A stretch of DNA of 64,000 nt from an uncultured Bacilli bacterium (GCA_934700895.1 CAKUXV010000001.1:269289-333288), one strand, 5' to 3'. Positions 2,251 through 45,887 are shown, numbered from the stretch's first letter. Made by a program: numbers and translations. Notes: a model not told the origin generated them from the sequence alone.

Positions 2251-2266
2251 TAGGAGTAAATTTATT

Positions 2267-2725: not shown

Positions 2726-2742
2726 TTGCAAAACCCCTATTT

Positions 2743-5837: not shown

Positions 5838-5909
5838 CGCGTTTTATAAAAGAAAATTAAAATGGGGCGACTTTGCAGGTCGTCCCATATTTTGTTTAGG
5901 ATTTGTTTT

Positions 5910-7241: not shown

Positions 7242-7381
7242 AAATGTTAAGTAGCCTTTCTTAAGTCCAACTAGGAATTATTGAGTGCCCACAAAAAAAG
7301 GCAAGCCATTTCGTCTTTTTGAAGACTAAAAAGAAAGGAAATCATCTTTCTTTTTTTGGGATTTCGTGTAACCTTTTAGCG

Positions 7382-25681: not shown

Positions 25682-26993
25682 ATGGAATATGCAGAAAACG
25701 AAACAACGGAATTGAAGCCCATTTACGTGGATGACATCAAGAAAGAAATTATCGCCTTTGCTAACACTTTTGGCGGAACTATTTATATTGGGGTAGAAGA
25801 CAATGGTCGTATTTGCGGAGTAGAAGATGTTGACGCGGTGATGCAGCAGGTCATGAACGCTGCTCGCGATGGGATTAAGCCAGACGTCACGCTGTTTATG
25901 CACGTTCGTGATATTGATATTGACGAGGGCAAAACCATTGTCGCGATAGAAGTGCAATGTGGCGCTCATAAACCTTATTATTTGGCTTCCAAAGGGCTAC
26001 GTCCTGTAGGCGTTTTTGTTCGGCAGGGCACATCTTCCGTTCCTGCGTCGAAAACGGCGATCCGCAAAATGATTAAAGAAACGGACGGCGATAATTTTGA
26101 AGACATGCGTTCCTTGAATCAGGAATTGACTTTTCCAAGATGCAGGAGGAATTTCAAAAAAGAAATCTGAGCTTAGCGGATGTTCAAATGAAAACGCTTG
26201 GGCTCATCGACTCGGATGGATTGTACACCAATTTGGCATTGCTTCTATCAGACCAATGCCCTCACATAATCAAAGCGGCTACCTTTGGCGGGGTGAATCA
26301 GGAGAAATTCCAAGATCGGCGTGAATTTACCGGTTCGTTGCTTAAGCAGCTAGATGACGCCTACGCTTATTTGGATATGCGAAATCAAAATGTGGCTACA
26401 TTCAAAGGCCTTCATCGTACGGATCACCGCGATTATCCCGAAACGGCCATTCGGGAAGCATTATTGAACGCCATTGTCCATCGTGACTATTCCGTTCTGG
26501 CCAGCACACTTTTAAGCGTTTATTCCAATCGCATTGAATTGCTTTCTGTCGGAGGGTTAGCTGGAGGCGTGTCTTACGACGACATCATGCTAGGGGTGTC
26601 TTATTGTCGTAATAAGAAACTTGCCAATATTTTCTATCGAATGGACTTAATCGAAGCTTATGGGACCGGCATCAATAAAATCATGTCGTCCTATGAGGTT
26701 CTCGCCGAAAACCAGAAATCATCATCACCTCCGGCGCCTTTAAATTCATTTTGCCAAATCGGGGAACTCCCGTGAATACGGTGAAAGATGACGTGGCCTC
26801 CTATATCGATTCGGAACGTGAAAACACCGTTTGTTCCCTTTTGTCGGATCATTTACCCCACGCCCGCTTAGAAATAGAAAAAGCGTTGGGGGCATCCACC
26901 TCTACCACGCGTAGAATCCTTCAAAAGTTGATGGATGAAGGGAAAATCTCCTCAACGGGCGCAACAAAAAGCGTGATGTATTTCGTGAAATAA
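25682..26993 (+). pseudogene. Frameshifted paralog of the AlbA_2/ATPase-like/wHTH regulator. It is split over three reading frames (25616-26170, 26140-26775, 26751-26993).
   Basis: Three consecutive ORFs in frames 2, 1 and 3 together rebuild one domain series: AlbA_2 (KKEIIAFANTFGGTIYIGVEDNG), a HATPase_c_4-like region (LLNAIVHRDYS...GTGINKI) and a winged HTH. Confidence 0.6.
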
Positions 26994-27404: not shown

Positions 27405-29192
27405 TTATTTGGCTTCCAATTCCTTTTCGAGGAGGTCGACGAGTTCGCTCATGCGCGACACGACGGCTTCGAAGGGTTCCTTCGAGGTCAAATCAACGCC
27501 GGCCTTCTTGACTTGCTCGATGGGGAAGTCGCTGCCGCCGCTGCGAAGCAAATTCACATAAGAAGTGAAGGCTTCTGGCTCTTTGGCTTTGACTTTTTCG
27601 TAAATCAACATGGAAGAGGTGAAACTCGTCGCGTATTGATAAACGTAGAAGGGGGTGTAGAAGAGGTGGGGGATATAAGCCCAGACCAAGGGTTTGAGTT
27701 TTTCTTCCTCAATGTCGATGCCGTAATATTGCTTATATAGGCGCGTCATGATGGAGGAGAGAACTTGATAATTGATCGGTTCGCCTTTTTCCGCCAACAA
27801 GCTGGCTTCGTATTCGTAATGGCCAAATAGGGTTTGGCGATAGAAGGTGGAGCAGATTTCATCGATGGCCTTTTGGAGCAAGGCGATGCGGTCTTCGTGA
27901 GACAATGTGCCGGAAGCAAGGAGATAATCAAGGAGGTTATGCTCATTGAAGGTCGAGGCGATTTCAGCGACGAAGATTGTGTAATCCTGCTTCAAAGTCG
28001 GCTGCGATTCTTCGCTATAAAGCGTGTGTATGGAGTGGCCGGATTCGTGGGCAAGGGTGAAAACGTCATCAAGCTCGCCTTGGAAATTCAAAAGAATGAA
28101 GGGGTGGTGGTCGTATCCGCCGTTAGAATAAGCGCCCGTCCGTTTTCCTAAAGAAGGATAGACGTCGACGTATCCAGGGCGTAAAACCTCTTTGGCTTTG
28201 TTTTGGAAATCAACCGGGAAATCCTTTAAGGAAGCGAAGAAGAGGTCTTTGGCTTCTTCGTAGGTGTATTTCTTGTTGGATTTTGCGAGTTGGAGGAAGC
28301 GGTCGTAGGAGCGGTGCTTTTCAAGCCCGAGGTATTTTCTGCGGAGCTCGTAATATTTCTTTAAAGGAGCGCTGCCTTTTTCGCTGGAAGCGACATCAAT
28401 TAAACTGTGGAAGACGGAAGTCGGAATGGCATTGTTGAAGAGATGCTCTTCTAGAATCGATTCATAACCACGACTTTTTTGAATGGCGAGTTGATCCTGG
28501 AGGACGGAATTATAGATTTCGCCATAAGTGTTTTTGTGCTCATCATACCAAGAATAGAGGCATTCGAAGATGGCTTGACGGTCTTCGGGTTTCTTGGTTT
28601 CGGCGATTAAGCTCGTCCAGTTTGAAAGATTGATTTCCTTCTTGCTTCCATCCGACAAGATCACTTCTTTGGGCTTGTAGTCGGCGACGGTTAGAAGGGA
28701 ATAGAGGTTTCCGCCCTCCCCATGAAGCGGGGCATAGCAGGAAAGCAATTTTTCCTTTTCGGCATCGAGAACGTGTCTTTGTCCGCGAAATAATTTCTCA
28801 AAGGAGAAAGAATATTCGTTGAATTCGGGGTGCTTGGCGAAGAACGCATTGACGTTATCCTGCCCGTAAGCAAGCAACTCCGGTTCAAAATAGGAGGCTT
28901 CGGCGATATAGGATTGAACGGCGAGTTCAACTTTGCTTTCGTCGCTTGTGTTCTCAACGTTTCTCCGATCGCGGTCGGCACGCATGGAAGCGAAGAAGGC
29001 GAGATTGATGTAGGTAAGGGTGAATTTCTTGTCTAGGGTTAGGTAGCCCGCTAATCCCTCTTCCGATGCGATTTTCCCTTGGAATTTTTTTACTTCGGGA
29101 ACGAAGCTTTTCAATTTTTCAATGTCGGATAAAAACGCTTCTTCGTTGGGATAGAAGACGCTTAAATCCCACTGTGTTTGTTGTTGGTCCAT
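27405..29192 (-). CDS. pepF: Oligoendopeptidase F (M3B).
   Basis: HESGHSIH zinc motif. About 595 aa. Confidence 0.85.
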   Translation of the reverse strand: MDQQQTQWDLSVFYPNEEAFLSDIEKLKSFVPEVKKFQGKIASEEGLAGYLTLDKKFTLTYINLAFFASMRADRDRRNVENTSDESKVELAVQSYIAEASYFEPELLAYGQDNVNAFFAKHPEFNEYSFSFEKLFRGQRHVLDAEKEKLLSCYAPLHGEGGNLYSLLTVADYKPKEVILSDGSKKEINLSNWTSLIAETKKPEDRQAIFECLYSWYDEHKNTYGEIYNSVLQDQLAIQKSRGYESILEEHLFNNAIPTSVFHSLIDVASSEKGSAPLKKYYELRRKYLGLEKHRSYDRFLQLAKSNKKYTYEEAKDLFFASLKDFPVDFQNKAKEVLRPGYVDVYPSLGKRTGAYSNGGYDHHPFILLNFQGELDDVFTLAHESGHSIHTLYSEESQPTLKQDYTIFVAEIASTFNEHNLLDYLLASGTLSHEDRIALLQKAIDEICSTFYRQTLFGHYEYEASLLAEKGEPINYQVLSSIMTRLYKQYYGIDIEEEKLKPLVWAYIPHLFYTPFYVYQYATSFTSSMLIYEKVKAKEPEAFTSYVNLLRSGGSDFPIEQVKKAGVDLTSKEPFEAVVSRMSELVDLLEKELEAK

Positions 29193-29284: not shown

Positions 29285-32200
29285 TTACGGCTTTACTGAC
29301 CAAGTGGCAATGGAATTGAAGTTATCCGAATAGGTGAATTCGGACTCTCCTTCTTTGCCCAACATGGATTCGTAGATGGAAGAGACCGTTCCCGAAACGT
29401 CATTGCTGCCGTTTCGATAACTGGAGGAATCATCCCAACATAGGCGATAAACGTGATTTTGGACGTTTTCCAAGGCCAAAGAGAAGTTGATGTTTAAAGT
29501 AATCAAGACATTGATCGCGAGCTTTCCAGAGGCCGTAGAGAGGGTTTTCATGCGTTTGGAGTCGATGTCGACATAATCGCCAACGATGTCCGCGCTGATT
29601 TTCATGCCAACACTCGACTGGGTGATTTTGCCTAAGTCGATTCCCAAGGAGAATTTGGGGGTATCGGTTGGCGTAGCTTCACTAGGCCCAGAATAAGAAA
29701 GCAAGACGTCTTCGGGGTGAATGGCCGCGCCGGAAGTATCGGAATTTTCGATGCTGCCGACAATCGAATCCGACATATTGAGCATGTAGGACATAATCCA
29801 AAGAAGCATATTGGCCCCAAAGTCTTTCCCTTTGACTTTCTTTTGGTCTTGCTTCCATTTGGCCCCGATGCCAAGGAATCCGCCTTCTTTGGTGGCACGG
29901 CGAACCAAGACGCTGCCTTCTGGATCATTTCCTGAGCCATGGTAATAACATTCCGCGTAGGTTTCCGCGTTGGTGACCCCGGTAAATTTATCGATATGGG
30001 TCTTGATATAGAGGGTGACACTTGCCCCGTCGACACGCACATAGACGTCTCCGTTTAATTTGGTATTGAGAATCGATGCGGAAAGGGTGAGGTGATAGGT
30101 GGTAACTTTGTTATTCGGAGTGATTCCAAGCGAAGCGGTGTCGATGATATAAGCGGCAAGGCTAGAGATGGAAGAATAGTCGACGAATCCCTCCGTAGAA
30201 GAGAAGTGGTGGAGGTCTTCTTCTGTCGCATCAAGGGAAGTGATGCCGATCGTGATATCCATCTCCTTCAGGGAGCCTTCCTCCCCCATTTGAGTTTGGA
30301 TTCGTAAAGACGTAAGGGGTCCTGCCCCTTCTTGACCGGCGATTTTATCTCCAAAACCCAAAGTTAATACCAAAGGGGAATGGGTTCCGAATAAAGAGGT
30401 GGGGAAGGTCAAAGCCATTTGGTTGGAAGAAGAAAAGCTAGATTCCAACAAGGGGCTGGTTAAGGCGTCAAAATAAAGCCCGTTTCCGATTTTGCCAAGC
30501 AAGGATTCGGTGGATGCGCTGGAGAAGGCGTTCATCAAGCGTTCAAAACGCGGATCGTCGCTTTGGAGAAAATCCATGACCAGCGAGAGGATGTCATTGA
30601 GGGAATGGATGGTGAAATAGCCCTGCATTCCGTTTTTGCTATCGGGGTCCTTGCGGTTTTCGTCTTTTTGGCTATTCGCGTTCTTGGAGTCGTAACGGAA
30701 GATCATTTTGTTGATATCAAGATTCGTCGCTGCGTCGATTTTGCTAGGACCCGTTACTTCGATATCGATGTTATGGTCGTTGATGTATTTGGTCTGACGG
30801 TCGGTGAAAGTGGCTTTACCTGCCCCACGCTTTTGTTCTAAATCAAAGGCAAAGGAGCCTGAGAAGACAAACCCTTCTTCGGGGCGGTTATAGGACGAAT
30901 GGTCGGCTACGGTAGTAGTTCCGAGCTTCAATAAATAGCCGGATAAGGAGAAGGTGGCTTTATTGGTTCTTGCAATCTGGCCGATTTGGTCTGAAATCGA
31001 GGGGAGATGGTCCCACAAGTCATACGATTCGGGGTTTTGGATATCGTCCATCGCAAAATCACGGACTTTCAAAGAACCCGATTCGATGGAGAAGGGCCCA
31101 AGGGCCAAGTTCGATAAAGTGATTTCCGCAACAGACTCCCCTGAGCTTAAAAGGATGTCCGCCGAGCCTGATGCAAAACCGAGTTTGCTGAAATCTAGTC
31201 CGATCCGCACTTGATTCGCTTCCGTTTCCAGATGAGAAATCGCGTCGAGGATAAAGTCATAACGCCCCGCCTGGAGACCCTGATTTAATGCTCCGGCTTC
31301 GAAAGCGTCTACGGCTTCGCCAATGGCTCCAGTAGTTTGAAGGAGTCCGGATAACAAGCCCTCCTCATCGTTAGATTCGCCATTGCCTTTGAAGACTTCA
31401 TCGAAACGGGAGACAAGAGCATCTAAAACCGGTTTGGTTGTTTTGGCCTTTAAAGCGTCGTTTAAAGAGAAAAAGACGGCATTCGCGTTAGCTCCTTCGT
31501 TGCCATAAAGGTGAAGGCCAATATGATTTTCTCGTTTCGTTTCTTCTTTGGCGGTGGCAAGGCTGATATCCGCGCCAATTTCTTGCAGAGCCGAGCCGTT
31601 GAATTCCAAATCCGCGGATAGTCCTAATTCCAAGGTTTCGTGGACCGCGTCATGACCAAAGGAAGTGGACGTGGAGGGGATTTCGTCTTCGTCGTGGCTT
31701 AGTACCAAATTGCCATCCACCCCAAACTTGCGATTTTTGATGAGGTGGCCCATCTTTTTGAAGAGGGCGGTGGAATCACTTAGTTTTTGATAAGAACCGA
31801 CGTCCTCCGGAATCGCCCAATTCTTAGCTTCCGGCTTGTTTTCTAAGGAGAAAGATGCGGAGAGGTGCATCAAATTGCCCGTGCCAAAAGTTAAGGAAGA
31901 AATGTTGCTGCTTCTTGCTGGCAAATCGATTCCGGAAAAAGAATAAGAGGAAGAAGAACGCAACCCAATGGGATAATAGGTTTCCCCTTCGGCTAATTGA
32001 AGGTTCCAAGTAAAATAGGGGAGGCCATCGATGGAAGTTTCTTGCACGTGGTTTAACGAATCTAAAACCACGGACCAATCGATGTTAAACGAAGAAGAAG
32101 AACCAGAAGACCCTTCTGAATCGGAGCTTTTAAGGAGGTCCATCAATTCTTCAATGATCCAGGACAAATCGCCATATTGATAACAGGCGTATCCATTCAA

Positions 32201-32719
32201 TTCGGAATCGTAGGAAACGTCGTTCCCGTTGCTCCCGTCAAAAATGGTTTCCTTGAGGTCCATTTGGTAACGGAGGCGGCTATTTTCACTTTCGTTTCGG
32301 CTTAAATCCAAATCCAAAAGGAATAAATCAGAGGCTAAGAATAACCCAAGGTTCACTTTCTTGCCATTGTAACTAACGGGCGCATCCATGGCCAACTTAA
32401 GGTGATGGAGTGATGGGGCGTCTAAGGCAAAATCAAGGGAAACGCCAGAAAAATCGATGACGTTGGCGGAATCTCCCGCCGCTTTATCCAAGGTGAAGGC
32501 GCTTCCTTCTTCCACGTGCAGGCTTATCCCATCATGAAAAGAAGAAGTAAAACTGGTGAGAAAACGATCCCTAACCTCAATCTGCAAGGAATTGGAATCG
32601 CCGCTATTTCCTCCATCAAAAGGCTTTTCCGCCTTGACACTAGTGGTAAAAGGTGAGCAAGAAAGAAGCAAGGCTAAGCCTAGGGAACTAGATAAGAATG
32701 TTTTCTGAAAAGGTTTCAT
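29285..32719 (-). CDS. Giant exported lipoprotein (1144 aa), function unknown. Paralog of 33884-37639.
   Basis: Signal peptide with LLSC lipobox. Segments align with the 1251-aa protein, for example FFSLNDALKAKTTKPVLDALV against LNFGDALKARTTKTTLDELM. Confidence 0.6.
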   Translation of the reverse strand: MKPFQKTFLSSSLGLALLLSCSPFTTSVKAEKPFDGGNSGDSNSLQIEVRDRFLTSFTSSFHDGISLHVEEGSAFTLDKAAGDSANVIDFSGVSLDFALDAPSLHHLKLAMDAPVSYNGKKVNLGLFLASDLFLLDLDLSRNESENSRLRYQMDLKETIFDGSNGNDVSYDSELNGYACYQYGDLSWIIEELMDLLKSSDSEGSSGSSSSFNIDWSVVLDSLNHVQETSIDGLPYFTWNLQLAEGETYYPIGLRSSSSYSFSGIDLPARSSNISSLTFGTGNLMHLSASFSLENKPEAKNWAIPEDVGSYQKLSDSTALFKKMGHLIKNRKFGVDGNLVLSHDEDEIPSTSTSFGHDAVHETLELGLSADLEFNGSALQEIGADISLATAKEETKRENHIGLHLYGNEGANANAVFFSLNDALKAKTTKPVLDALVSRFDEVFKGNGESNDEEGLLSGLLQTTGAIGEAVDAFEAGALNQGLQAGRYDFILDAISHLETEANQVRIGLDFSKLGFASGSADILLSSGESVAEITLSNLALGPFSIESGSLKVRDFAMDDIQNPESYDLWDHLPSISDQIGQIARTNKATFSLSGYLLKLGTTTVADHSSYNRPEEGFVFSGSFAFDLEQKRGAGKATFTDRQTKYINDHNIDIEVTGPSKIDAATNLDINKMIFRYDSKNANSQKDENRKDPDSKNGMQGYFTIHSLNDILSLVMDFLQSDDPRFERLMNAFSSASTESLLGKIGNGLYFDALTSPLLESSFSSSNQMALTFPTSLFGTHSPLVLTLGFGDKIAGQEGAGPLTSLRIQTQMGEEGSLKEMDITIGITSLDATEEDLHHFSSTEGFVDYSSISSLAAYIIDTASLGITPNNKVTTYHLTLSASILNTKLNGDVYVRVDGASVTLYIKTHIDKFTGVTNAETYAECYYHGSGNDPEGSVLVRRATKEGGFLGIGAKWKQDQKKVKGKDFGANMLLWIMSYMLNMSDSIVGSIENSDTSGAAIHPEDVLLSYSGPSEATPTDTPKFSLGIDLGKITQSSVGMKISADIVGDYVDIDSKRMKTLSTASGKLAINVLITLNINFSLALENVQNHVYRLCWDDSSSYRNGSNDVSGTVSSIYESMLGKEGESEFTYSDNFNSIATWSVKP

Positions 32720-32805
32720 TTCTTGCTAAGTAGGGCCTACAAAAGACCAATATGCATTATATGCATAAGGGGTTCAACATCACTCTATTTCGAAAATATG
32801 GAAGA

Positions 32806-32834
32806 AAGAAAAAGACTCTCCAAATCGGAGAGTC
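32806..32834 (-). terminator. Rho-independent terminator of the XRE-membrane gene.
   Basis: On the minus strand: GACTCTCC-gattt-GGAGAGTC followed by TTTTTCT. Confidence 0.55.
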
Positions 32835-32847
32835 TCGATGCCATCGG

Positions 32848-33534
32848 TTATTTTTCTGGAGTTTCTGCAGGAATTTCTTTCGAAACTTCCTTGGAAGCTG
32901 CCGTCTCCGTTTTCGGCTTTCTCCTCCAAGAGAAAAGCAAAGCAAGGATAACTTGTAGCGGCACCCCAACAATCAAAATGAACCAAAGCTGTTCTTTTTG
33001 GGGGCTAAAGAAAGCGAAATGGAAACAGAAACAAAGCAAAAGACTCCATAAGAAAGAGCTGACCACGACGAAGGTAGCTACTTTGTTATGGTAGAAACGC
33101 CGGGTTTCAATGGCGATTAAGAAAAGGGAAATGGGAATCATCCAAAGGAAGACGGCGAATAATTCTAGAGACCGCATGTTCCGGAAATAATATTCGCTTA
33201 AGAAAATAGAGACGGCTACTAGAACAACAAACATGGCGGTCATCGCAACAATTAAGGCCTTGTTAATCGCTTGAGGGTCTTTCTTTTCAGTGGCATTAAC
33301 GATTTTGTCCGCGCTTTCCGGTTCGTGCTCTTGGGTTAAATAATCAACGCTCACCCCAAAATAAGAGGCGAAGTCCATCAAAATATCAATGCTAGGGCAC
33401 GTGTATCCAAGCTCCCATTTGGAGATGGATTTATCGCTATAATGAATTTCGGAAGCGAGTTCTAACTGCGTCAAACCCTTGGCTTTTCGGAGAGAAGAAA
33501 TGTTCTTTCCAATCGTTGCGGCGAGATTTTCCAT
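32848..33534 (-). CDS. XRE-family HTH domain fused to a polytopic membrane domain.
   Basis: N-terminal SSLRKAKGLTQLELASEIHYSDKSISKWELGYTCPSIDILMDFASYFGVSVDYL followed by four or five TM helices. Confidence 0.7.
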   Translation of the reverse strand: MENLAATIGKNISSLRKAKGLTQLELASEIHYSDKSISKWELGYTCPSIDILMDFASYFGVSVDYLTQEHEPESADKIVNATEKKDPQAINKALIVAMTAMFVVLVAVSIFLSEYYFRNMRSLELFAVFLWMIPISLFLIAIETRRFYHNKVATFVVVSSFLWSLLLCFCFHFAFFSPQKEQLWFILIVGVPLQVILALLFSWRRKPKTETAASKEVSKEIPAETPEK

Positions 33535-33835
33535 GCACCAATTGTACGTTTCCTCGCCCCTTTCGTCAAAATGGAGAGAAAAAATAAAGACTTATTCGGG
33601 TGTGACTTTTCCGAAAAAGGAATCGCGTGAGCACTAGGAGTGATGAACCAGGATACGACTTTCCAGCCCTTTTTGGCAAACTCGTTGACGGTATTTTGGA
33701 TTTAGATCGCCATCTTTTCCGCCTAGGGTCCGTAGGCTAATGCAACGGTTTTATATTTCATTTTGTTCACCTCAATAATGCCATTATACGGGGGACGCAT
33801 CGTCGAATTTGCAAAGAATTCGTAAGGATGAACTA

Positions 33836-33870
33836 GCAAAAAAAGGACGGCATCTGGCCGCCCTTTGGAA
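33836..33870 (-). terminator. Rho-independent terminator of the 1251-aa gene.
   Basis: On the minus strand: GGGCGGC-cagat-GCCGTCC followed by TTTTTTT. Confidence 0.55.
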
Positions 33871-33883
33871 GTTAAGGAACGCG

Positions 33884-36800
33884 TTATTTGGAAAGGTAGT
33901 AGTTCCGATGCCCTTTGTTAGCTTCGTCTACGCCGTGTCTCCATGCTTTTCCACCTTCTTTATCGGTGGGTTCTGCATAGATGCCAACGGCTTGGTATTC
34001 GTCTCCATTGAAGGAGAGGAAGTTCGTGGAATAGGCTTCGCTAACGGAATCCCATCCATTGGAATAGACGCCGTTATCGAGGTTGGCGAGGGCCAAGTCG
34101 ATGTTGGCTTTAGCCAAGGAGAGGCGGTTGCCGGTATTTTCCGCGTGGAAGCTCACGCCACAATCCGCGTGCAACGAATTTAACGCATGAACTTTGGTTT
34201 GGCCGTCTTGGGCGAGGAAGGTTCCTCCGCCAATGACGAGGCTGATGTCATCGAGGATATCAACGCCCAATAAACCATTGAGGTTCAATTTCAGGGTATA
34301 CGTGACGCTATTTCCGTCGGAAGAAACACTCTTAGAGAATCCTTTGTAAAGGTCTTCAAAATGGAGGGCATTGGCAAGTCCGGAAGAAGAAGTCTCTTCG
34401 CCATTATTTTCAAAATAGGATTCATTGACGCCGAGAACGTATTGGAGGATGTAATTCAAGGCATCGTCTTTAAAGGCGCCTTCTTTGTTTAGTTTCACCG
34501 AATCGCGGACGTTAGCAAGCTTGCCGTAATCCGAATCGCGGGTTAATAGCATCTCGGTGGTTAAGTTGCCTTCTGCATCTTCGCGTCCATCCGAATAATA
34601 ATAGAAGGAAGCATCGCGCGATCCGCCGAGTTCAAGCGGACGGAAGTAGAGGTCGTTATCCGGAGCGTTCAAACCGCGGATAGTGGGGATGTTGTTTAAC
34701 GATCCCGCCACCTTGATGCGCGCACCTTCTACCGACATCGCCATATTCGCTTGAGCGAGTTTGGTTTCATAATCGCCAAGTTGAAGCCCAACGGTTCCTT
34801 GAAGGTCGTAAGTCGATACCCCCTCTCCTTCTTTTAATCCGAGGACGGTCGTTTCGGCGGCGTAATCGATAAGGGAATATAGTCCAGAATAATCGTCGTA
34901 ATTCTTCTTTTCTTCGCCTAAGGAAGCAAAGGTTTCATCTGGGGCTAAATCCGCTAAAGCGATACGAAGGTCAACACTAGTTTGCTTGCCTTCTTCTCCG
35001 CTAAGGGTTTCCACCTGAATGTTTTTCAGTGTCTTGTCGTCATTGAAATTCAAGGCTAAGGTGATGGAACCATCCATCCCAAAGGCGCTGCCATTTAAGT
35101 CAAATTGGGCTTTGTTGGAGGTAAAAGAAGACGAATTTAAGAACGAATAATCGGCGATGGCAAAATAATTGCCACTAGAAATATCGTTCATTAAGCTCGC
35201 TTCAGCGCCGCTAGAGAAGAGTCGACTGATGCGGGAGAAGCGATCGTCGGAGTTGGAGACCAAGTCTTTGACCGTGTCGATGACTCCATCGAGTCCCTGA
35301 GTTCCGATTTGACCGTTGATGCCAGTAGAAGAAGTCGGGTCTTTGCGGTTTTCTGCAGCCACTTTCACTTCGTTTTTCATGACGGAAGGGTCGTTTTTGG
35401 AGTCGTAATGGAAATAGGCGACGTTATCGGCGCTGAACAAGGCTTCACCCTGGTTGTCCAAATCGATTGCAAGATGGTGATCTTGGTAATAAGAAGCACC
35501 ACGTTCGGTGAGATTTAACGCCACGGTTCCTTTGATTTTGGCAGGATTCACCGTTTCATCGCCTTCGACGTTTCCTTTGCCGCCGCCAAAGTCCAACGCG
35601 ACGCGGCCGTTTAAATCGAGTCCTTGGGTTTTATTCGCATCCTTATAGACGTCTTGGGTGCCGAGATAATTAATGTTGCCCTGCAATTCGATGCCAAGCT
35701 TTTTGTCTTCTACCATCGGTTTGATTTGGTCGACGACGGTGGGGAGGTGGGTCAATTCGTCCCAGGAAATCATATCCTCGCTGATGATGGGTTCTTGGAA
35801 TTCGGGGGTTTCTAAGGCGACGTTCAACGTAAGCGTCTGCAAAACGAGGTTTTTGATTTCGATTTTAGCAAGGCTAGAAGTAGCGTCCCCGCGTAATGCG
35901 ACAACGATTTTGGCTTCGTTAAATCCAAGGGGCTTCAAATTGAGTTCCAGGGAAATGAGATTATCCGCGATCGTGACGTTATCGATCATATCGACGACAT
36001 CTTCGTAATGTTTTTGCTCTAAATTGGTTAGCAAAGTCGGTTTTTGGTAATCGGATTCCCCTTGGAGAACTTTCAAAACTTTGTCGAGCGTCGAAATCAC
36101 CTGGTTCAATTGCTCGTCGGTCTTTTTCTCCTCAACGCTTCCCTCTGGATTGGTGGGGTCGGCTGTGGTTTCGCTCTTGAATTTGCCCATGAGCTCATCG
36201 AGAGTGGTTTTGGTGGTGCGCGCTTTTAAGGCATCCCCGAAATTCAAATAGGCTCCGCTACTATCGGAATCGGTATTTTGAATAAGAGCGCTTAAGGTTT
36301 GGCTGCCTTTCTTCGTGCCGTTCCCATCGAAATGGGTGAAAGAAAGGGAAGCGTCCGCACGATTGAAGTCGACGCCTTTAATCGCACCGTCGGTTAATTT
36401 CCAAGACAAATCGACGTTGCCGCCTACGTGTAAATTTGCTTTTTCGTGGACTTCTTTTTTGCCAAAAGTCGTATACGTCCCTGCTTCTCCTTTGACGTGA
36501 TGCTCCATATCAACGTCCAAACTGACGCCGAATTTTGGAGTAGCCACATAAGAAGCAATGCGGCGATAAAGTTCCAAAGAATCGTCTAATTTGGGATAGG
36601 CTTTCCAAGCTGCCGGAACCGTCCAATCGAATTCGCCGGTGCTGGCTTTGGTGGTAACATCCGCAGAAAGCTGAATGGTCCAATCTTTGCCTTCTAAAAG
36701 CTGTTGACGTCCCTGCTTTCCGTTTTGGACTGCCGGCATATCGATATGGGTTAAGGAATAATTCTCGTCCCCGCCGAAACCAATGGAATAGGTCATGTTT

Positions 36801-37639
36801 CCCAATGGCAAATCCAAGGTGAAATAAGGTTTCCCCGAAGCATCTTTGCCTTCTTTCATTTGGCTTAAGGCATCCATCATGGCATCGGTGTCGAAGCTGC
36901 TGGAAGAAGAATCGCTAGTAGAATCTTCGCTATTGGTCCCGCCAATCTTGCCATAGGTATCGATGTTGATTCCGCCCTTGGTCAAGATTTCGATGATGTC
37001 GTGAAGGACAAAATCCAAGCGGCCGTATTCATAGGAGGGATTGCCGCCGGTAATCGGATCGGCAATGGAAGTATCAACTTCCCGCAAAACGGAAACCTGG
37101 TACCCCGCGTCCCAGTCGTGTTCGTTGCCATCGATATCCGCGATGTTGAAATAGAGGTTTTTCTCCGTTTCCCCATCTCCAAGCAAGCCAAGGTTCAACT
37201 GACGTTGCAAGCCGTTATAGGCTAGTGGCAATTCCGCGGAAAGGTTAATCCCAGAAAGAGAAAGCGAATTCAACGCGAGTTTGATTCCCGCCGGTTTTCC
37301 CGGAATCGTGGAAATACGATTGTCGTAATAGGTGTTCGTGACGCTGCCATCTTCTTGGGGGAGCGAGCTTTTTACCGCGCCAGGAATGGATAAATCCAAG
37401 GTGTTGATGGATAAACTTAAACCGCTGGTAGCGGATTCGAGAAGATTATTGACGAATTTTTCCGATGGCGTGACTTTTTGGTCTCCCCCGCCGTTAGAAC
37501 TTGAAAGATGATTAGTGATCGTTTGTTGCGGTAATAAGAAGAAGACGCCCGCGGCTGTGACCCCGAAGGTCGTTAAGCACGTTAATCCCCATAGCAAGGT
37601 CTGCTTATGGCTTTGTTTTTTGTTGTTGTTCTTTTTCAT
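33884..37639 (-). CDS. Giant exported or membrane-anchored protein (1251 aa), function unknown. Paralog of 29285-32719.
   Basis: Basic N-terminus followed by a hydrophobic anchor. Collinear similarity to the 1144-aa protein. AGGGGAA ribosome-binding site. Confidence 0.6.
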   Translation of the reverse strand: MKKNNNKKQSHKQTLLWGLTCLTTFGVTAAGVFFLLPQQTITNHLSSSNGGGDQKVTPSEKFVNNLLESATSGLSLSINTLDLSIPGAVKSSLPQEDGSVTNTYYDNRISTIPGKPAGIKLALNSLSLSGINLSAELPLAYNGLQRQLNLGLLGDGETEKNLYFNIADIDGNEHDWDAGYQVSVLREVDTSIADPITGGNPSYEYGRLDFVLHDIIEILTKGGINIDTYGKIGGTNSEDSTSDSSSSSFDTDAMMDALSQMKEGKDASGKPYFTLDLPLGNMTYSIGFGGDENYSLTHIDMPAVQNGKQGRQQLLEGKDWTIQLSADVTTKASTGEFDWTVPAAWKAYPKLDDSLELYRRIASYVATPKFGVSLDVDMEHHVKGEAGTYTTFGKKEVHEKANLHVGGNVDLSWKLTDGAIKGVDFNRADASLSFTHFDGNGTKKGSQTLSALIQNTDSDSSGAYLNFGDALKARTTKTTLDELMGKFKSETTADPTNPEGSVEEKKTDEQLNQVISTLDKVLKVLQGESDYQKPTLLTNLEQKHYEDVVDMIDNVTIADNLISLELNLKPLGFNEAKIVVALRGDATSSLAKIEIKNLVLQTLTLNVALETPEFQEPIISEDMISWDELTHLPTVVDQIKPMVEDKKLGIELQGNINYLGTQDVYKDANKTQGLDLNGRVALDFGGGKGNVEGDETVNPAKIKGTVALNLTERGASYYQDHHLAIDLDNQGEALFSADNVAYFHYDSKNDPSVMKNEVKVAAENRKDPTSSTGINGQIGTQGLDGVIDTVKDLVSNSDDRFSRISRLFSSGAEASLMNDISSGNYFAIADYSFLNSSSFTSNKAQFDLNGSAFGMDGSITLALNFNDDKTLKNIQVETLSGEEGKQTSVDLRIALADLAPDETFASLGEEKKNYDDYSGLYSLIDYAAETTVLGLKEGEGVSTYDLQGTVGLQLGDYETKLAQANMAMSVEGARIKVAGSLNNIPTIRGLNAPDNDLYFRPLELGGSRDASFYYYSDGREDAEGNLTTEMLLTRDSDYGKLANVRDSVKLNKEGAFKDDALNYILQYVLGVNESYFENNGEETSSSGLANALHFEDLYKGFSKSVSSDGNSVTYTLKLNLNGLLGVDILDDISLVIGGGTFLAQDGQTKVHALNSLHADCGVSFHAENTGNRLSLAKANIDLALANLDNGVYSNGWDSVSEAYSTNFLSFNGDEYQAVGIYAEPTDKEGGKAWRHGVDEANKGHRNYYLSK

Positions 37640-37662
37640 GATTGGATTCCCCTAATTGAATG

Positions 37663-38631
37663 TTATTTCTCGATTTGTTTTAGAAGCGCTGCCTCCGTTT
37701 TCGGATATTCTGGCAAGGCTCCGCTTGGTTCTGGAATGCCCCCTTCTGGAAGAGAAGGGAAGTAGACGGTTGTCATCGTTCCCGCACAGGCGCTTCCAAT
37801 TCCGCTAGACAAGGTGGCTTGATATTTTTCTTTGCTTTGGAACCATTTCAATGTTAAGTCGGAAGTGAAGTTCCACCGCAAATGAACATAAGAGAAGTTG
37901 GGAGGAGCCTTAAGGTTTGAAATTGTCTTCATTTGACGGACGTATCGAAGGGTGGAGGTCAAGGGATCGACTTCCATGTCAATCGTATAGGTTCCGTCTT
38001 GGTTTTTCTGGACTTTTGTTAGCCCTTCCCCAGACAAGTTTTCTTTGCTTTCGGTTAGATCGGAAACGATATAAACAAGTCCGTCGCTGACGTTTCGCCC
38101 CATTTCTTCCTTGTAGGTCTTGTTATCCACCTTCACGGGTTTGTTGGATCCGTAATTGGGCGTGGATCCCCAGTATTTGGTGGTTTGATCCCCTTCTTGA
38201 TACATCCGATTATACAAAGCGACGAAAGAAGAGGAGGAATTGGATTCTTCAAAATAACGGTCTCCGTCGCGCATCTGGGTGGATTCGATTCGCTGATCAA
38301 CCAAACCCATCGCGTTAGAAGAACCAACGGACACGGAATAGGAAGTTTCTTTTTGGGCATAAATCCCATAGGCGGCATTGACGATTTCGTAGGGCGCCAT
38401 CTTGGCGAAAAAATCACCGCCCGACTTTTTGACCTTTTGATATTTGGCCATGATCGCGTCCATGTCGGCTTCATATTTAGATGCGTCGCCGTCTGTGATG
38501 GATAAAACGGGTTTTAACGTATCGTGGAGTTTTAGCCCTGCCACTAAACCAAGGAAGCAAGAAAGAAGAACCATGGTCGGCGCCCGAAAGCACTTGGGGT
38601 CAAAACGTTGGGCTTCTTGAACTTGTTCCAT
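37663..38631 (-). CDS. Exported protein (322 aa) of unknown function, co-oriented with and 23 nt upstream of the 1251-aa gene.
   Basis: N-terminal signal or anchor (MVLLSCFLGLVAGL). No recognisable motif. Confidence 0.55.
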   Translation of the reverse strand: MEQVQEAQRFDPKCFRAPTMVLLSCFLGLVAGLKLHDTLKPVLSITDGDASKYEADMDAIMAKYQKVKKSGGDFFAKMAPYEIVNAAYGIYAQKETSYSVSVGSSNAMGLVDQRIESTQMRDGDRYFEESNSSSSFVALYNRMYQEGDQTTKYWGSTPNYGSNKPVKVDNKTYKEEMGRNVSDGLVYIVSDLTESKENLSGEGLTKVQKNQDGTYTIDMEVDPLTSTLRYVRQMKTISNLKAPPNFSYVHLRWNFTSDLTLKWFQSKEKYQATLSSGIGSACAGTMTTVYFPSLPEGGIPEPSGALPEYPKTEAALLKQIEK

Positions 38632-38701
38632 ACTTTTTTACCATTACCATTTTAGAAAGGGCAAAGCCAAAGTCACTCTACTTCGTATGCGTATACGTGA
38701 G

Positions 38702-38727
38702 AAAAAGACTCTCCGAATGGGAGAGTC
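38702..38727 (-). terminator. Rho-independent terminator of the methyltransferase / iron ABC operon.
   Basis: On the minus strand: GACTCTCC-cattc-GGAGAGTC followed by TTTTT. Same stem as the terminator at 32806-32834. Confidence 0.55.
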
Positions 38728-38755
38728 CAAATTGAAAGGGTACGTGGATGCGTTT

Positions 38756-39337
38756 TCAGGCCTTTTCGCCTAATAAGAGAAAGAGGTGTTCGTCTTCTTT
38801 TGCATCTAAAATTTTGAAGTTTTGACCCCATTTTCGCCCTTCTTCGACCGCGGAATCGAGGTCGCGAGAATAGGGGTGGGCCTTTCCGACGTGGGCGGCC
38901 ATGAGTTCAAAACGGGACAGATTATGAAGAACGAGCAGGTGCCCCTTTGGCTTTAAAACGCGATGGGCTTGTTGAACGAAACCCTCGACGTCTAAAAAAT
39001 GGGGGTAAGCGTTGAAGACCACAATCCAATCGAATCCTTCGCCTTCAAAATGCAGGAAGTCTCCGGATTCAAAATGAAGATGCGGGTTATCCTGATATTT
39101 TTCTTTCGCTTTTTCAATCATCTTGGGGGACAAGTCTAATCCCAAAACGTCACATTCCGTCTTTTCGTAGAGGTATGGGGTGAGGATTCCCGTCCCGCAG
39201 GCAAGATCAAGAACCTTGTCCCTTTTTTGGATGGGGATATCTTTTAGAAGCAGACGCAAAGAAGAGGCGGTCGCCCTTTCTTTGTCGTCCCAAGAAGAAC
39301 TTTGGATATCAAAAAATTCCTGCATGGAGGAGATCAT
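38756..39337 (-). CDS. Class I SAM-dependent methyltransferase.
   Basis: Motif I VLDLACGTGILT. Confidence 0.7.
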   Translation of the reverse strand: MISSMQEFFDIQSSSWDDKERATASSLRLLLKDIPIQKRDKVLDLACGTGILTPYLYEKTECDVLGLDLSPKMIEKAKEKYQDNPHLHFESGDFLHFEGEGFDWIVVFNAYPHFLDVEGFVQQAHRVLKPKGHLLVLHNLSRFELMAAHVGKAHPYSRDLDSAVEEGRKWGQNFKILDAKEDEHLFLLLGEKA

Positions 39338-40551
39338 TGAGCTTTCTCCGTCAAGAATGCGCGAAGGTCGGAAATCTTTTGGTATCCGCCGTATTGGCCA
39401 TTCATCGCGGCGAGCTCGGCATAAATTTTCTTGCCGGTGAAGACTTCCAAAATCTCGTCGGCTTTTGCGGTGATATCAAATCCGGCAAAAGCGGCAGGAT
39501 AAACGCTAGAGGCGACGAAATAGGTGTTGATTAGATGGATTTCGATGTTTTGGTAGTAGGCGTTATAAGGAAGTTGAAGATAGACTTCGCCATTTTCCAC
39601 GGCCTTCACTCCATCAAAGATGGTTTTGTCTTCTTTGAATAATCCAATGGTTTTGGCCATGCCCGCGGCATCTAAAATCATGACGTCGATATTGCCGCTC
39701 ACAGCGGCAAATTTTTCTTTTTCAATGCTTTGGACCCCCGAAGCCGCAAGCCCTTGGTCTGCTAAAACGTTGGTGATTCCTGCCACGGCGAAAGAGGGGT
39801 CGGTTGGGTTGGTGGATAGATAGTCTTTTTGGCCCCAGTTGCCGACTCCACCCAGATAGACTTTTGGCTTTTCGGTCACGTTTTCCACGTGTTTGGAGAT
39901 ATCTTCTTTCGCGGTTTTGATGCAATTCAAAATTACTTGGCTCCGATCTTCTTTGCCAAGCAATTTTCCTAGGTTAGTTAAGGTTGCGGCAAAAGTATCG
40001 TCAAAAGCGCCTTTTTGGCCATATTTAACGGTAAAGACTTTGGCGCCGCTTTTCTTTTCCATTTGATCCGCTTGTTCGTTGGTTTCGTAGTCGCTGATGA
40101 TTAAATCGGGGGCGCAGGTAACAATCTTTTCAAGCTCCGGTTTCTGATGCATGGGCCCGCCTTCGCCACAGGTCGGCAAATCGGCCCATTCGCTTGCGTT
40201 GGCGTCAAAATAAGGGCGAGCAACGCCACTAAAGGGAGCGGAAGCACCGCGCTTTGAAAGGTTATCGATATCTTCGATGCCCACTAAACGCCCCTTGCCG
40301 CTTTCTAAATAGGAATAATAACGGAGGGCGCCGGCTCCGACACAAATGATTTTCTGGATGGAAGCGGGGTCAACGGTCACTTTCCTCCCAATGCCATCCG
40401 TCACTTCGACTGGCTTGACGATAGGGGTGGATTCGGAAGTCGATGGTTCGGTTTTGGACGGCTCCGTTTTCGAATTGTTGGGGTTGTCTCCGTTTCCGCA
40501 GGAGGCCAATAAGGCTGCGGAAAGGAGGAACAAGGTGGATGGTTTTTTCAT
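39334..40551 (-). CDS. ABC-transporter substrate-binding lipoprotein (iron-siderophore / cobalamin class; FecB/TroA-like).
   Basis: Lipobox LLASCGNG followed by a Ser/Pro tether. Sits next to a FecCD-type permease and ATPase. Confidence 0.7.
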   Translation of the reverse strand: MKKPSTLFLLSAALLASCGNGDNPNNSKTEPSKTEPSTSESTPIVKPVEVTDGIGRKVTVDPASIQKIICVGAGALRYYSYLESGKGRLVGIEDIDNLSKRGASAPFSGVARPYFDANASEWADLPTCGEGGPMHQKPELEKIVTCAPDLIISDYETNEQADQMEKKSGAKVFTVKYGQKGAFDDTFAATLTNLGKLLGKEDRSQVILNCIKTAKEDISKHVENVTEKPKVYLGGVGNWGQKDYLSTNPTDPSFAVAGITNVLADQGLAASGVQSIEKEKFAAVSGNIDVMILDAAGMAKTIGLFKEDKTIFDGVKAVENGEVYLQLPYNAYYQNIEIHLINTYFVASSVYPAAFAGFDITAKADEILEVFTGKKIYAELAAMNGQYGGYQKISDLRAFLTEKAQ

Positions 40552-41318
40552 GGATTTCTCCCTTTCTTATTTTGAAATTCAATATAGGTTCCGCCTTCTT
40601 TTTGAATAAAGGCGGCATCTGCCTCGTAAATGTCGGAGAGGATTTTTTCATTCAAATCCTTTTTGGCGACGTCATAAGCAAGATGAGTTTCCTTTAGAAA
40701 CAGGAAACGATCAGCGACGGAATAGGCTTCGTTGATATCATGAAGACACAAAAGGACGCAGGTGCCGGAATTGGCAATCTCTCTCACTTTTTGTAAGAAT
40801 TCGAGTCGGGCTTTCACGTCCAAGGAAGCGGTTGGCTCGTCCAAAAGAAGGACTTGAGGCTTTCCCACCATGGCTCTAGCAATGCCGACTCGCTGCTTTT
40901 CTCCGCCACTAAGCTCATCAACGTTACGGTCTCGATATTCGGCGATCCCCATTTCAAATAGAGTTTGGACGACGGCTTCTTTGTCCAAAGGGGAAGGACT
41001 CCAAGAAAAATAAGGGAGGCGCCCTAAAAGCAAATAGTCAAAAACGGTTAGCCCCCCACCTTCAAAGGATTGGGTAAGAGTGGCTATTTTTTGAGCACGC
41101 GCCTTGGGGGACATCTCCTTCAATGCTTTTCCTTCTAAAATGATTTCCCCTTCTTTAGGCTTTTTAATACCGGAAAGAAGATGAAACAAAGTGCTTTTCC
41201 CTGCCCCGTTTTGTCCTAATAAAGCATTGACGGTCCCAGGCTCAAGCGAAAAGGAAACGTTTTGAAGAATCGCTTTTTTGCCGTAAAAGAAGGAGAGGCC
41301 CTTTGCTTCTAAACTCAT
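40548..41318 (-). CDS. ABC-transporter ATP-binding protein (FepC/FecE-like).
   Basis: Walker A GQNGAGKST. Signature LSGGEKQR. Walker B LLLDEP. Confidence 0.85.
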   Translation of the reverse strand: MSLEAKGLSFFYGKKAILQNVSFSLEPGTVNALLGQNGAGKSTLFHLLSGIKKPKEGEIILEGKALKEMSPKARAQKIATLTQSFEGGGLTVFDYLLLGRLPYFSWSPSPLDKEAVVQTLFEMGIAEYRDRNVDELSGGEKQRVGIARAMVGKPQVLLLDEPTASLDVKARLEFLQKVREIANSGTCVLLCLHDINEAYSVADRFLFLKETHLAYDVAKKDLNEKILSDIYEADAAFIQKEGGTYIEFQNKKGRNP

Positions 41319-42388
41319 AGGGCTTTCTCCTTTTTCGAGAAGAGCAAGAAAAGGAAGAATGGGGCGCCAATCAAGGCTGTGATGGCCCCTACGGGAAGAG
41401 AAGTTCCTCTGCCAATCAAACGAGTGAGGATGTCACAAACTAGAAGCAGCCCTGCTCCGCCTAAAAAAGATGCGGGCAGCAACAAACGCATGTCGTTGCC
41501 TACAAACCTCTTCAAAATATGCGGAGCCATGATGCCGATAAATCCGATGATGCCACAAAAGCAAACGCAAACCGCGGTTAATAAGGAGGATAAAAACAGA
41601 AGAATGAAACGAACCACCGAGGTCTTTACCCCTAGGCTTTTGGCCAAATCCTCTCCCCCTTGCATCGCATTAAGCGGGTAAGAGAAAAAGAAAGCAATGA
41701 TTAAACAAGATAGGGCAATCCCTCCGATAATCCCGTTTTGAGCAAAATCTAGCCGCTCCAAATCACCAAAGGTCCAATTGGTTACGCTGGAAAGCTGAAC
41801 GTCGTCGGCGAAAAACTGAAGCAAGGTGGTAAGAGCCTGAAATAAAGAAGAAAAGGAAACCCCAATCAGCAAAACGCTGGTCGGTTTAAAATGGGCAAAA
41901 GCAGAGAAGGCCATGACCAAAAAAAGGCATAATGCCGAGAATAACAAAGCGAATGTGCTTGTTACCCAGGGGCTTTGGGAAACGTAGAGGAAATCGTTGC
42001 GGCCACTATGGGTGGTGCCAAAAGCAATGAAAATCGCAATATTCGCACCAAAACTTGCCGCATTGGAAACACCTAACGTGGAAGGAGAGGCGAGGCCGTT
42101 TCGAAGGCATGACTGCATGAGCAAGCCACTTAACGCCAATCCTGCCCCGACAACAATGGCTCCCAAGGTTCGAGGGAGACGAATTCCTCGTACGATGCGA
42201 ATCGTTCCCGCTTCGCCATTGCCAAACAGGGCTTTCCAAGAAGAGAAAAAACCGATTCCGGAAGACCCGATGCCCAGGGAAATAAAAAAGAGAACAACAA
42301 GGATCAACAAAGCGATAAGAAGAGCAAATAGTTTTTTGCTTTGGCTCTTTCGCCTTTCTCGCACGATGTTGTTCGTCCACGTATCCAT
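41315..42388 (-). CDS. FecCD-family ABC permease.
   Basis: About 9 TM helices. Overlaps the ATPase start. Confidence 0.8.
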   Translation of the reverse strand: MDTWTNNIVRERRKSQSKKLFALLIALLILVVLFFISLGIGSSGIGFFSSWKALFGNGEAGTIRIVRGIRLPRTLGAIVVGAGLALSGLLMQSCLRNGLASPSTLGVSNAASFGANIAIFIAFGTTHSGRNDFLYVSQSPWVTSTFALLFSALCLFLVMAFSAFAHFKPTSVLLIGVSFSSLFQALTTLLQFFADDVQLSSVTNWTFGDLERLDFAQNGIIGGIALSCLIIAFFFSYPLNAMQGGEDLAKSLGVKTSVVRFILLFLSSLLTAVCVCFCGIIGFIGIMAPHILKRFVGNDMRLLLPASFLGGAGLLLVCDILTRLIGRGTSLPVGAITALIGAPFFLFLLFSKKEKAL

Positions 42389-44750: not shown

Positions 44751-45887
44751 TTATTTGGCTTCCCCGACGCAATAATCGAGCAAGGCGTTAAGCAAGGGCT
44801 TTACGTATTCTTCTAATCCCTCGTGGTTATTGGACGTCTCTACTCCCACGAGGTTTTTCTTTTCGACCTTATTCAAGTAGGAGAAGATCTCCAAATTGTC
44901 CCGGCTTCCATCAAAATAACTTTCCGTGACCTTGCCGTCTTGGATTGTTTCGTTAAAGAAGACCCCGCTCGCGTCGATGACGTCTCCGGTTTTACTGACC
45001 CCATCGGGATTGACGTGGAAGATTGTTGGGAATACGCCTTGGCTATAACCCGCGGGATTGTAAGAAGAATAGGCGAGTCCATATTCGACCTTGAAGGCGT
45101 TATATTGTTCCGCCGCGGCCTTGCCATATTCGCTATCTTCGTCCCGATAATGGACTTGACCATCTTCATCCACGATCGAAGCGATTCCCGGGGCATCGCA
45201 ATCGATGATGTAACTATCCTGCACCCCGGTTAAATGGGACTCGTACCAGGAGGAATAAAGGCCGCGCTGCAAATAGGAACAATCCCCACAACGCTGACGG
45301 GAGAAATAGATCGTGAATTCCTGGCTCCCCGCATATAAGGAATCCAATTGTTCCTTGTTCACAAAGAAGACGCGGGGGAGTTCGATTCGGTTGAGCATCC
45401 ACGTCTTAAAAACCTCGTAAGAAGTATAGAAAGGAGAGACTTCATCCGCGTCATTATTCTGGGCGACGAGCCCCCCGTCTTTAAAGATTCCAATGGTCGC
45501 TTTCTCCACTCCGAGGCTAAGGCCCAAAGAGGAGGTGAGTTGATCGCTATATATATAGTAAAAGAGGAAGTTGAATTCGCGTTGGAAGGAAACGATGTTT
45601 TGTTCGTGAAATCGGTTCCAGCATCCGCAGGTGGAATGGCTTCCGGTTTCTCCTCTCCCCATGACGATCAAAACGAAATTGTCTTTGCCCGCAATCATTT
45701 TTTGAAGGACGGATTCGTCCTCCAATTTTTTCATATGGGACAAAGAATCCACCTCTTGAGAAACGAATTCTTTCGTTCCAAAAAGCAGGGGTGTTTTTTG
45801 AATTTTTTCTCCCCCGTTTCCCTTGCAAGAAACAAGGCTAAAAACAAGCGATAATCCTAGAAAAGAAATTTGGCTAAATTTGCTCAT
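44751..45887 (-). CDS. Lipoprotein of unknown function.
   Basis: Signal peptide with LVSC lipobox. Internal Cys pairs STCGCW and RCGDCS. Confidence 0.5.
   Translation of the reverse strand: MSKFSQISFLGLSLVFSLVSCKGNGGEKIQKTPLLFGTKEFVSQEVDSLSHMKKLEDESVLQKMIAGKDNFVLIVMGRGETGSHSTCGCWNRFHEQNIVSFQREFNFLFYYIYSDQLTSSLGLSLGVEKATIGIFKDGGLVAQNNDADEVSPFYTSYEVFKTWMLNRIELPRVFFVNKEQLDSLYAGSQEFTIYFSRQRCGDCSYLQRGLYSSWYESHLTGVQDSYIIDCDAPGIASIVDEDGQVHYRDEDSEYGKAAAEQYNAFKVEYGLAYSSYNPAGYSQGVFPTIFHVNPDGVSKTGDVIDASGVFFNETIQDGKVTESYFDGSRDNLEIFSYLNKVEKKNLVGVETSNNHEGLEEYVKPLLNALLDYCVGEAK

Follow-up and report, generated by a model that had tools for sequence, protein, structure and literature searches.

A conserved four-gene module with two giant, membrane-tethered paralogues as a candidate cell-envelope system of uncultured RFN20-type gut Bacilli

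The locus at positions 29285-38631 of a 64-kb stretch of DNA from an uncultured Bacilli bacterium (the whole stretch is called the window, and coordinates refer to it unless another locus is named) carries four co-oriented open reading frames (ORFs) on the minus strand. They encode a 322-amino acid (aa) accessory protein, a 1251-aa protein (giant A), a protein joining an XRE-type helix-turn-helix (HTH) domain to transmembrane (TM) helices, and a 1144-aa protein (giant B). Coordinates and lengths were recovered exactly as in an initial annotation made from the sequence, which had described the two giants as co-oriented genes accompanied by accessory genes. Our best reading is that these genes form a self-contained module of the cell envelope, conserved among uncultured gut Bacilli of the RFN20 type. 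No described counterpart of this four-gene composition was found, and we regard it as categorically new at the level of both the family and the module. The initial description of a duplicated, possibly regulated surface-protein module, with its function left open, is supported by gene linkage, membrane anchors, a shared promoter box and the lack of any match to a known family.

In a BLASTP comparison the two giants aligned collinearly over 1110 residues, with 25% identity, 43% positives and an E-value of 8e-64. This is far above chance, so the paralogy first suggested by collinear blocks is clear. The motif originally quoted for these blocks lies inside the alignment, reading LNDALKAKTTKPVLDAL in giant B and FGDALKARTTKTTLDEL in giant A. 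The N-terminus of giant B, MKPFQKTFLSSSLGLALLLSC, corresponds to a signal peptide with a lipobox-like LLSC and Cys21. Giant A has a single N-terminal hydrophobic helix, which ends in the family motif FFLLPQ and is followed by an acidic, beta-rich ectodomain with no further TM segment. These features indicate that both giants are tethered to the membrane at their N-termini, A through a TM helix and B through a lipoprotein signal, in keeping with the early assignment of one lipoprotein and one N-terminally anchored protein. Across the family, 80 of 118 members passed a hydrophobic-window test for an N-terminal anchor, and a subset carried a lipobox. A C-terminal TM segment or LPXTG motif is absent from both giants, whose C-termini are ...ATWSVKP and ...HRNYYLSK. 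Both have an isoelectric point of 4.6 and consist to 40% of S, T, N, G and D, with two cysteines in giant A and four in giant B; because such acidity, low cysteine content and composition are usual in exposed proteins, the giants are probably extracellular.

Word-indexed searches recovered few relatives of the giants. An exhaustive hidden Markov model search of 1.84 billion cluster representatives (clustered at 50% identity) returned 308 at E<=1e-3 and 204 at E<=1e-30, most of the 308 being 950-1350 aa long. All named members are labelled "hypothetical" or "uncharacterized", and their sources are metagenome-assembled genomes (MAGs) of Bacilli/Bacillales and Candidatus Enteromonas/Alloenteromonas pullicola. 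Close relatives occur in hundreds of metagenome sequences, and the genomes that match the window at 95% identity come from the human gut, as MAGs with the labels uncultured Mollicutes or Bacilli. Candidatus Enteromonas belongs to GTDB order RFN20, family CAG-826 (PMC8035907), a family predicted to be peptidoglycan-deficient (PMC10868615). The murG gene is present in only ~5% of RFN20 genomes, and the order reads TGA as stop (PMC7301438), which fits the window because its table-11 ORFs are uninterrupted.

We then asked how the four genes are arranged in relatives. The accessory gene, one or two giant genes and the HTH-TM gene stand side by side in the window and in six other lineages, where the giants are 20-50% identical; gene assignments were confirmed by profile searches over all ORFs of these loci. 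Gene orders vary as follows: 319 aa, 1239 aa, serpin, HTH, 1184 aa, an opposite-strand 231-aa gene and PepF (oligoendopeptidase F) in L004/L005; 333 aa, 1200 aa, 1150 aa, HTH and PepF in L006; a divergent HTH gene, then 313 aa and 1125 aa, in L007/L008; FecCD ATP-binding cassette (ABC) genes, 318 aa, 1120 aa, 1132 aa and HTH in L009; rpsD, 324 aa, 1106 aa, HTH and tyrS, in an unrelated neighborhood, in L010; and a divergent HTH gene, then 318 aa and 1447 aa, in L011. The synteny on which the initial annotation had made its module depend, that of the accessory and HTH-TM genes with the giants, is therefore found in seven divergent lineages. Spacing suggests a single operon in two of them, since the A and B genes of L006 overlap or abut, with the HTH gene 56 nt later, and the A, B and HTH genes of L009 overlap or abut. 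The HTH gene had been taken for an accessory of the giant B unit. This assignment did not survive the comparison, as in relatives the gene sits after the giants or is divergently transcribed; it is a partner of the whole module. Two pairs of proteins without a Pfam match were also considered as family members (273 and 1345 aa in L007; 300 and 883 aa in L011) and proved unrelated, a 15% alignment of the 273-aa protein being set aside.

The accessory gene has orthologues of 29-52% identity (53% between the window and L004) located immediately upstream of a giant in 7/7 lineages. Its product has a hydrophobic N-terminal helix after ~25 polar residues, and then an outside domain of ~280 aa that carries a conserved YFEESNS..S.V.LYNRMYQ motif. 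It had been described as exported; the N-terminal helix is indeed present, but it resembles a signal anchor, and the protein is more likely membrane-anchored than freely exported. The possibility that it is a relative of the giants was rejected by profile comparison, which showed the two to be unrelated.

Comparison between lineages also dates the duplication of the giants. Giant A of the window is 50% and 29% identical to the A-type giants of L004 and L006 (1160 and 387 bits), versus 25% identical to their B-type giants (235 and 218 bits), and the pattern is reversed for giant B. A-type giants keep a TM anchor ending in F.LLPQ across lineages; B-type giants begin with a signal peptide, which includes a lipobox in those of the window, L004 and L006. 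Only an A-type giant is present in L007, L010 and L011. This pattern indicates an ancient duplication, with A-type and B-type genes orthologous across lineages and both kept since before the lineages split. The module had initially been viewed as duplicated, which is correct for the giant gene and not for an entire unit of accessory gene plus giant. Identity between the window and L004 falls from 79% for PepF through 58% for the HTH-TM protein, 53% for the accessory protein and 50% for giant A to 33% for giant B; the corresponding values for L006 are 65%, 57%, 38%, 29% and 30%. By this measure the giants evolve much faster than the neighboring PepF, and such a gradient, from PepF through the HTH and accessory proteins to the giants, is typical of exposed proteins.

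The HTH domain of the regulator matches Pfam HTH_3 (1.2e-14) and HTH_19 (5.7e-10) over residues 9-68. It is followed by four hydrophobic blocks (~93-115, 124-146, 153-177 and 184-204) that are conserved in six orthologues. The four TM helices are joined by very short loops and leave no extracellular domain; orthologues are 33-58% identical, TM part included. An XRE-HTH protein embedded in the membrane by four or five helices had been proposed, and four are supported here. A tblastn search against plasmids returned only generic HTH regulators, with ~30% identity over the HTH domain and first TM helix. The closest described parallel is the class of transmembrane regulators that includes BcrR (PMC10269533), which likewise combine an N-terminal XRE-type HTH domain with four TM helices, lack an extracellular sensor domain and are encoded beside their presumed targets. 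In place of an ABC exporter, the module's regulator has giant surface proteins as its presumed targets, and its likeness to the class is one of architecture.

The regions upstream of the two transcription units share unusual features. A palindrome, GACTCTCC-N5-GGAGAGTC, occurs twice in the 64-kb window versus 0.02 occurrences expected, each time upstream of one unit, and the two regions that bear it are homologous for ~60 nt more. The first copy forms a hairpin that follows a methyltransferase gene and precedes the accessory gene by 75 nt; it may be a terminator, an operator or both. The second, with its T-run, separates the regulator gene from giant B, and these two genes are therefore not an obvious single transcript in the window. 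Each unit had been thought to end in its own terminator: the terminator scan found a clear one after giant A and none after giant B. The promoter-like site of the regulator gene has a CTCTCC half-site 4 nt (ATTT) upstream of its -35 element.

A degenerate box, KAGAGTGMY, linked these promoters to those of other lineages. It occurs eight times in 187 kb, and six of these occurrences are on the coding strand, 41-61 nt upstream of an accessory or giant-B start, in four lineages (twice each in the window and L004, once each in L009 and L010). AGAGTG is invariant in the promoter alignment and overlaps a poor -35 element. The box is 19 nt upstream of a TAnAAT -10 element in five of the six promoters, that of L010 being, by one nt, less clear. 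Inverted repeats of CTCTC/GAGAG, or half-sites, are found 25-40 nt further upstream in most lineages, and lack a T-run in L006 and L009. The TAGAGTG box with its 19-nt spacing to the -10 element is thus a module-specific promoter signature, and the co-conserved HTH-TM protein is the natural candidate for its reader. The early suggestion that the module is possibly regulated gains support from a promoter box that is common to both units and conserved in other lineages.

Structure prediction provided a view of how the giants are built. An earlier AlphaFold2 model of giant B, from a 14-sequence alignment, was weak (predicted local distance difference test score, pLDDT, 56.7); a 63-sequence alignment gave a good model (pLDDT 81.1, predicted template modeling score 0.69). 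The good model repeats one arrangement: a helix, five or six long antiparallel strands, helices and five more strands. We split the family alignment at the boundaries derived from the model and compared the pieces by hhalign. Residues 317-569 and 573-848 of giant B matched each other with a probability of 98.4% (M2-M3; E 6e-15, 231 columns), and sub-units matched in alternation (U1–U3 86.8%, U3–U5 96.6%, U4–U6 96.0%). Together, the model and the profile comparisons indicate that the giants consist of about four tandem modules of ~260 aa, each predicted to be a helix plus a long beta-meander, bounded in giant B at residues 43-312 (M1), 313-571 (M2), 572-850 (M3) and 851-1100 (M4). The motif NDALKAKTTK..LD.L falls at a strand-to-helix junction that recurs in every module. 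The repeats match no known repeat family.

Longer relatives contain extra copies of M2/M3 inserted between N- and C-terminal caps. P0151 and P0160 have one additional M2/M3 pair each, and the 4042-aa member P0128 (L012 8001-21597; GCA_024712465.1, JAMQYI010513563.1) has ~six extra central modules together with eight CBM_5_12 carbohydrate-binding modules. These eight domains suggest that the giant scaffold is located outside the cell. The gene directly after P0128 encodes a Lipase_3 protein, and an accessory or HTH-TM gene is not evident adjacent to it. With the anchors and the composition, the relative bearing carbohydrate-binding modules leads us to infer that the giants stand on the outer face of the cytoplasmic membrane.

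Rapid sequence evolution, variable length and carbohydrate-binding modules in one relative are also what might be expected of adhesins or host-interaction fibrils, in which a distal C-terminal module would bind mucus, dietary glycans or cells and the accessory protein would aid anchoring or folding. Giants that are membrane-tethered, acidic and cysteine-poor, in bacteria of a gut habitat, fit this explanation. However, no lectin, Ig-like or other adhesin domain was detected in 42 diverse family members. The locus is a syntenic, low-copy core locus and not a variable, strain-specific, multi-copy family; both paralogues have been kept since before the lineage split, and a conserved partner and regulator are unusual for simple adhesins. 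We consider adhesion unlikely.

Searches for known families were uniformly negative. The giants had no match in Pfam, NCBIfam, PHROGs or PADLOC, nor among PDB sequences in single-sequence and profile searches, and the accessory protein had none in the same resources. Scanning the 42 members against Pfam at E<=1 revealed no recurrent family. Pfam matches to SLH, CWB2 or LysM domains were absent from the giants and the 42 members, as were matches to lectin, Ig-like, Cna_B, MucBP, Rib and mollicute antigen-family profiles. The first impression that the giants carry no enzymatic or adhesin repeat signature therefore holds for Pfam and NCBIfam scans of the giants and for the Pfam scan of the 42 members. 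The structural comparison proposed with the initial annotation, run on giant B, likewise revealed no known-family fold. Foldseek found no credible PDB match with either the weak or the good model, and the good model retrieved only generic beta-meander or porin-like structures (template modeling score <0.2 in PDB, <0.3 in BFVD). The giants and the accessory protein consequently appear to lie outside any described family, with no credible structural relative by Foldseek in PDB or BFVD.

These comparisons bear on a second explanation, that the modules form hydrophobic pockets or a groove through which host or dietary lipids, or sterols, would be acquired and moved to the membrane, with the regulator tuning the system to lipid status. 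The best functional analogy is P116 of Mycoplasma pneumoniae, a lipid-extracting surface protein (PMC10023570). The giants share its layout of an N-terminal membrane anchor and a ~1000-aa ectodomain, and resemble it in size; P116 also comes from a wall-less relative within the Bacillota and has a previously unseen fold. The module is found in hosts with reduced genomes and, probably, no wall (PMC10868615, PMC7301438). Sensing within the bilayer would suit a regulator that has four TM helices and lacks an outside domain, the number of modules is variable, as in LetB and repeating-beta-groove proteins, and lipase or patatin genes lie near the module at two loci. Apart from porins, the sole recurrent Foldseek matches were to lipid handlers with an open beta-barrel or a beta-jellyroll (LptD, LolB, AttH-like, 25-phosphosteroid lyase), at noise level. 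With template modeling scores <=0.24 and root-mean-square deviations of ~16-34 A, however, these matches are not real. P116 was absent from the matches listed (50 per Foldseek PDB run) for both models, as were TamB chains, and profile searches of PDB sequences, which were empty, detected no similarity between P116 and the giants. Nor do descriptions of P116 include a paralogue, a partner of 320 aa or a membrane regulator.

A similar comparison can be made with the bridge-like lipid transporters AsmA, TamB and YhdP (PMC10345924), which resemble the giants in having a single N-terminal TM anchor, a length of ~1100-1300 aa, long antiparallel strands, repeated units and variation in length within the family. 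The giants differ from AsmA and TamB in their many inter-module helices, and the host, a member of the Bacilli, is presumably a monoderm with no outer membrane to bridge; no outer-membrane genes were seen in the 64-kb window, which is too short to prove their absence. Neither window giant nor any of the 42 members had a Pfam match to AsmA, AsmA_2 or TamB (DUF490), and the 42 members had none to MCE. Membership of the TamB family was rejected, the profile of the giants' family reaching an hhalign probability of 0.15% against E. coli TamB. The composition of the giants is very polar, and a hydrophobic groove could not be confirmed. On balance, lipid transfer is rather unlikely.

Because the HTH domain of the regulator generically matches phage-repressor and defense-associated HTH profiles (NCBIfam, PHROGs and PADLOC scans), we also weighed an origin of the module as cargo of a mobile element or phage, or as anti-phage defense cargo; a surface protein for superinfection exclusion, controlled by an XRE repressor, would be one example. 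This origin is very improbable. The giants and the accessory protein lack matches in PHROGs and PADLOC and a credible fold match in BFVD; chromosomal synteny with PepF, FecCD transporter, cobW and CarD-like genes is conserved; no integrase or repeats flank the module; and its GC content is in line with that of its surroundings.

Returning to the cell-envelope module, we tentatively favor a surface coat or fibril layer, made of the giants and their 322-aa partner on probably wall-less cells, with expression set by the regulator; we consider this quite possible, though short of probable. In such a layer the giants would project from the membrane as rigid, acidic rods of tunable length and, with the small partner, would be the outermost interface of cells in which peptidoglycan is predicted to be missing. 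The regulator, given that it has no extracellular domain, may sense an intramembrane signal, and would switch the module promoters in the manner of one-component BcrR-type regulators.

The SlaA/SlaB surface layer of Sulfolobales pairs a large canopy protein with a smaller membrane-anchored partner. Like the module, it joins a large, acidic, beta-rich, low-cysteine protein to a small anchored partner encoded beside it, in a cell that lacks peptidoglycan or, for the module, is predicted to. The giants differ in being anchored themselves, in lacking SLH and CWB2 domains and in having a dedicated regulator.

Several points weigh against a coat. Sensor-regulators that are dedicated and co-conserved belong more typically to conditional uptake or stress systems than to a constitutive structural layer. 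Co-conservation is the sole pointer to regulator binding at the promoter elements, and the two hairpins of the window are also plain intrinsic terminators. Peptidoglycan deficiency is predicted for CAG-826 and not established for the window's own genome; L010 encodes EzrA and L011 teichoic-acid-type genes, so some carriers of the module may be walled or have teichoic-acid-like functions. In a variant that we regard as doubtful, the module encodes a hitherto unrecognized kind of apparatus in the envelope, which would have assumed a role of the wall once RFN20-type gut Bacilli had lost peptidoglycan. It would consist of a TM-anchored and a lipid-anchored rod, length-tunable and built from the new ~260-aa module, with their partner, acting as a mechanical or protective coat or a lipid conduit and set by the intramembrane-sensing XRE regulator through TAGAGTG-N19-TATAAT.

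Bacteria of the RFN20 and RF39 types, none of which has been cultured, are common in the guts of humans and animals, and repeated loss of the wall is predicted for them. The locus is a lineage-wide candidate for their otherwise undefined surface, and its giants and partner are invisible to current annotation. The ectodomains, promoter box and regulator offer experimental handles on how wall-less commensals build and control their interface with the host, and the same handles could tell protection, binding of host material and lipid import apart.

Table 1. Features of the module and its intergenic regions, in window coordinates.
Feature	Coordinates	Strand	Description
Accessory protein	37663..38631	(-)	322 aa, no known family
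Giant A	33884..37639	(-)	1251 aa, N-terminal TM signal-anchor
HTH-TM regulator	32848..33534	(-)	228 aa, N-terminal XRE-type HTH and four TM helices
Giant B	29285..32719	(-)	1144 aa, lipoprotein-type paralogue of giant A
Hairpin/palindrome 1	38706..38728	(-)	GACTCTCC-N5-GGAGAGTC, then T-run; terminator scan
Unit 1 promoter	38649..38680	(-)	TAGAGTGAC box, 19-nt spacer, TAAAAT (-10); promoter-like site
Intrinsic terminator 3' of giant A	33842..33866	(-)	10-bp stem, 6 GC pairs, T-run
Regulator-gene promoter-like site, TTGACG-17-TACAAT	33541..33569	(-)	
Hairpin/palindrome 2	32812..32836	(-)	GACTCTCC-N5-GGAGAGTC, then T-run; between regulator gene and giant B
Giant B promoter	32756..32787	(-)	TAGAGTGAT box, 19-nt spacer, TATAAT (-10)
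Giant B internal module M2	31007..31783	(-)	Helix, six long beta strands, helices, five strands (model)
Giant B internal module M3	30170..31006	(-)	Duplicate of M2

The PepF gene (29192..27405) begins 92 nt 3' of giant B. Upstream of the module lie the methyltransferase gene and a FecCD-type ABC importer (38756-42388), which is composed of a FecCD permease, an ABC ATPase and a Peripla_BP_2 protein, directly precedes the module and has a TetR regulator close by. Such an importer set takes the same position in L009, a distant lineage (3622-6634), and a cobW GTPase is conserved near the module in the window and L006. The FecCD and cobW neighbors look like conserved chromosomal synteny, and a functional link is not demonstrable. 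Other lineages add neighbors of their own: a patatin phospholipase in L009 (16567-17742) and, in L011 (2196-4756 and 17260-19238), an LPG_synthase_TM protein, a glycosyltransferase, LicD and Glyphos_transf.

A small decayed gene (33600-33761, minus strand) with two in-frame stops (MKYKTVALAYGP*AEKMAI*IQNTVNEFAKKGWKVVSWF...) occupies the gap from the terminator of giant A to the promoter of the regulator gene. It matches DUF4177 (E 5.8e-05) at 23.7 bits, marginally below the 25-bit cutoff. A serpin gene fills the corresponding gap in L004.

Elsewhere in the window, an Rfam scan returned zero matches, and five more ORFs of 312-507 aa had no Pfam match at E<=1e-5 (7319-8800, 19716-20654, 44751-45887, 56532-58040 and 61174-62697). 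The fourth of these lies within an Rnf-like cluster, after RnfC-like (54123-55442) and RnfD-like (55453-56535) genes. A HATPase_c_4 (RecG-C-like) protein is encoded at 26140-26775. The stretch at 106-5069 is low in GC (0.37 at 2001-4000) and encodes a 714-aa UvrD-like/AAA_22 protein and a 462-aa protein with a Schlafen AlbA_2 domain; it may be a small defense or mobile island.

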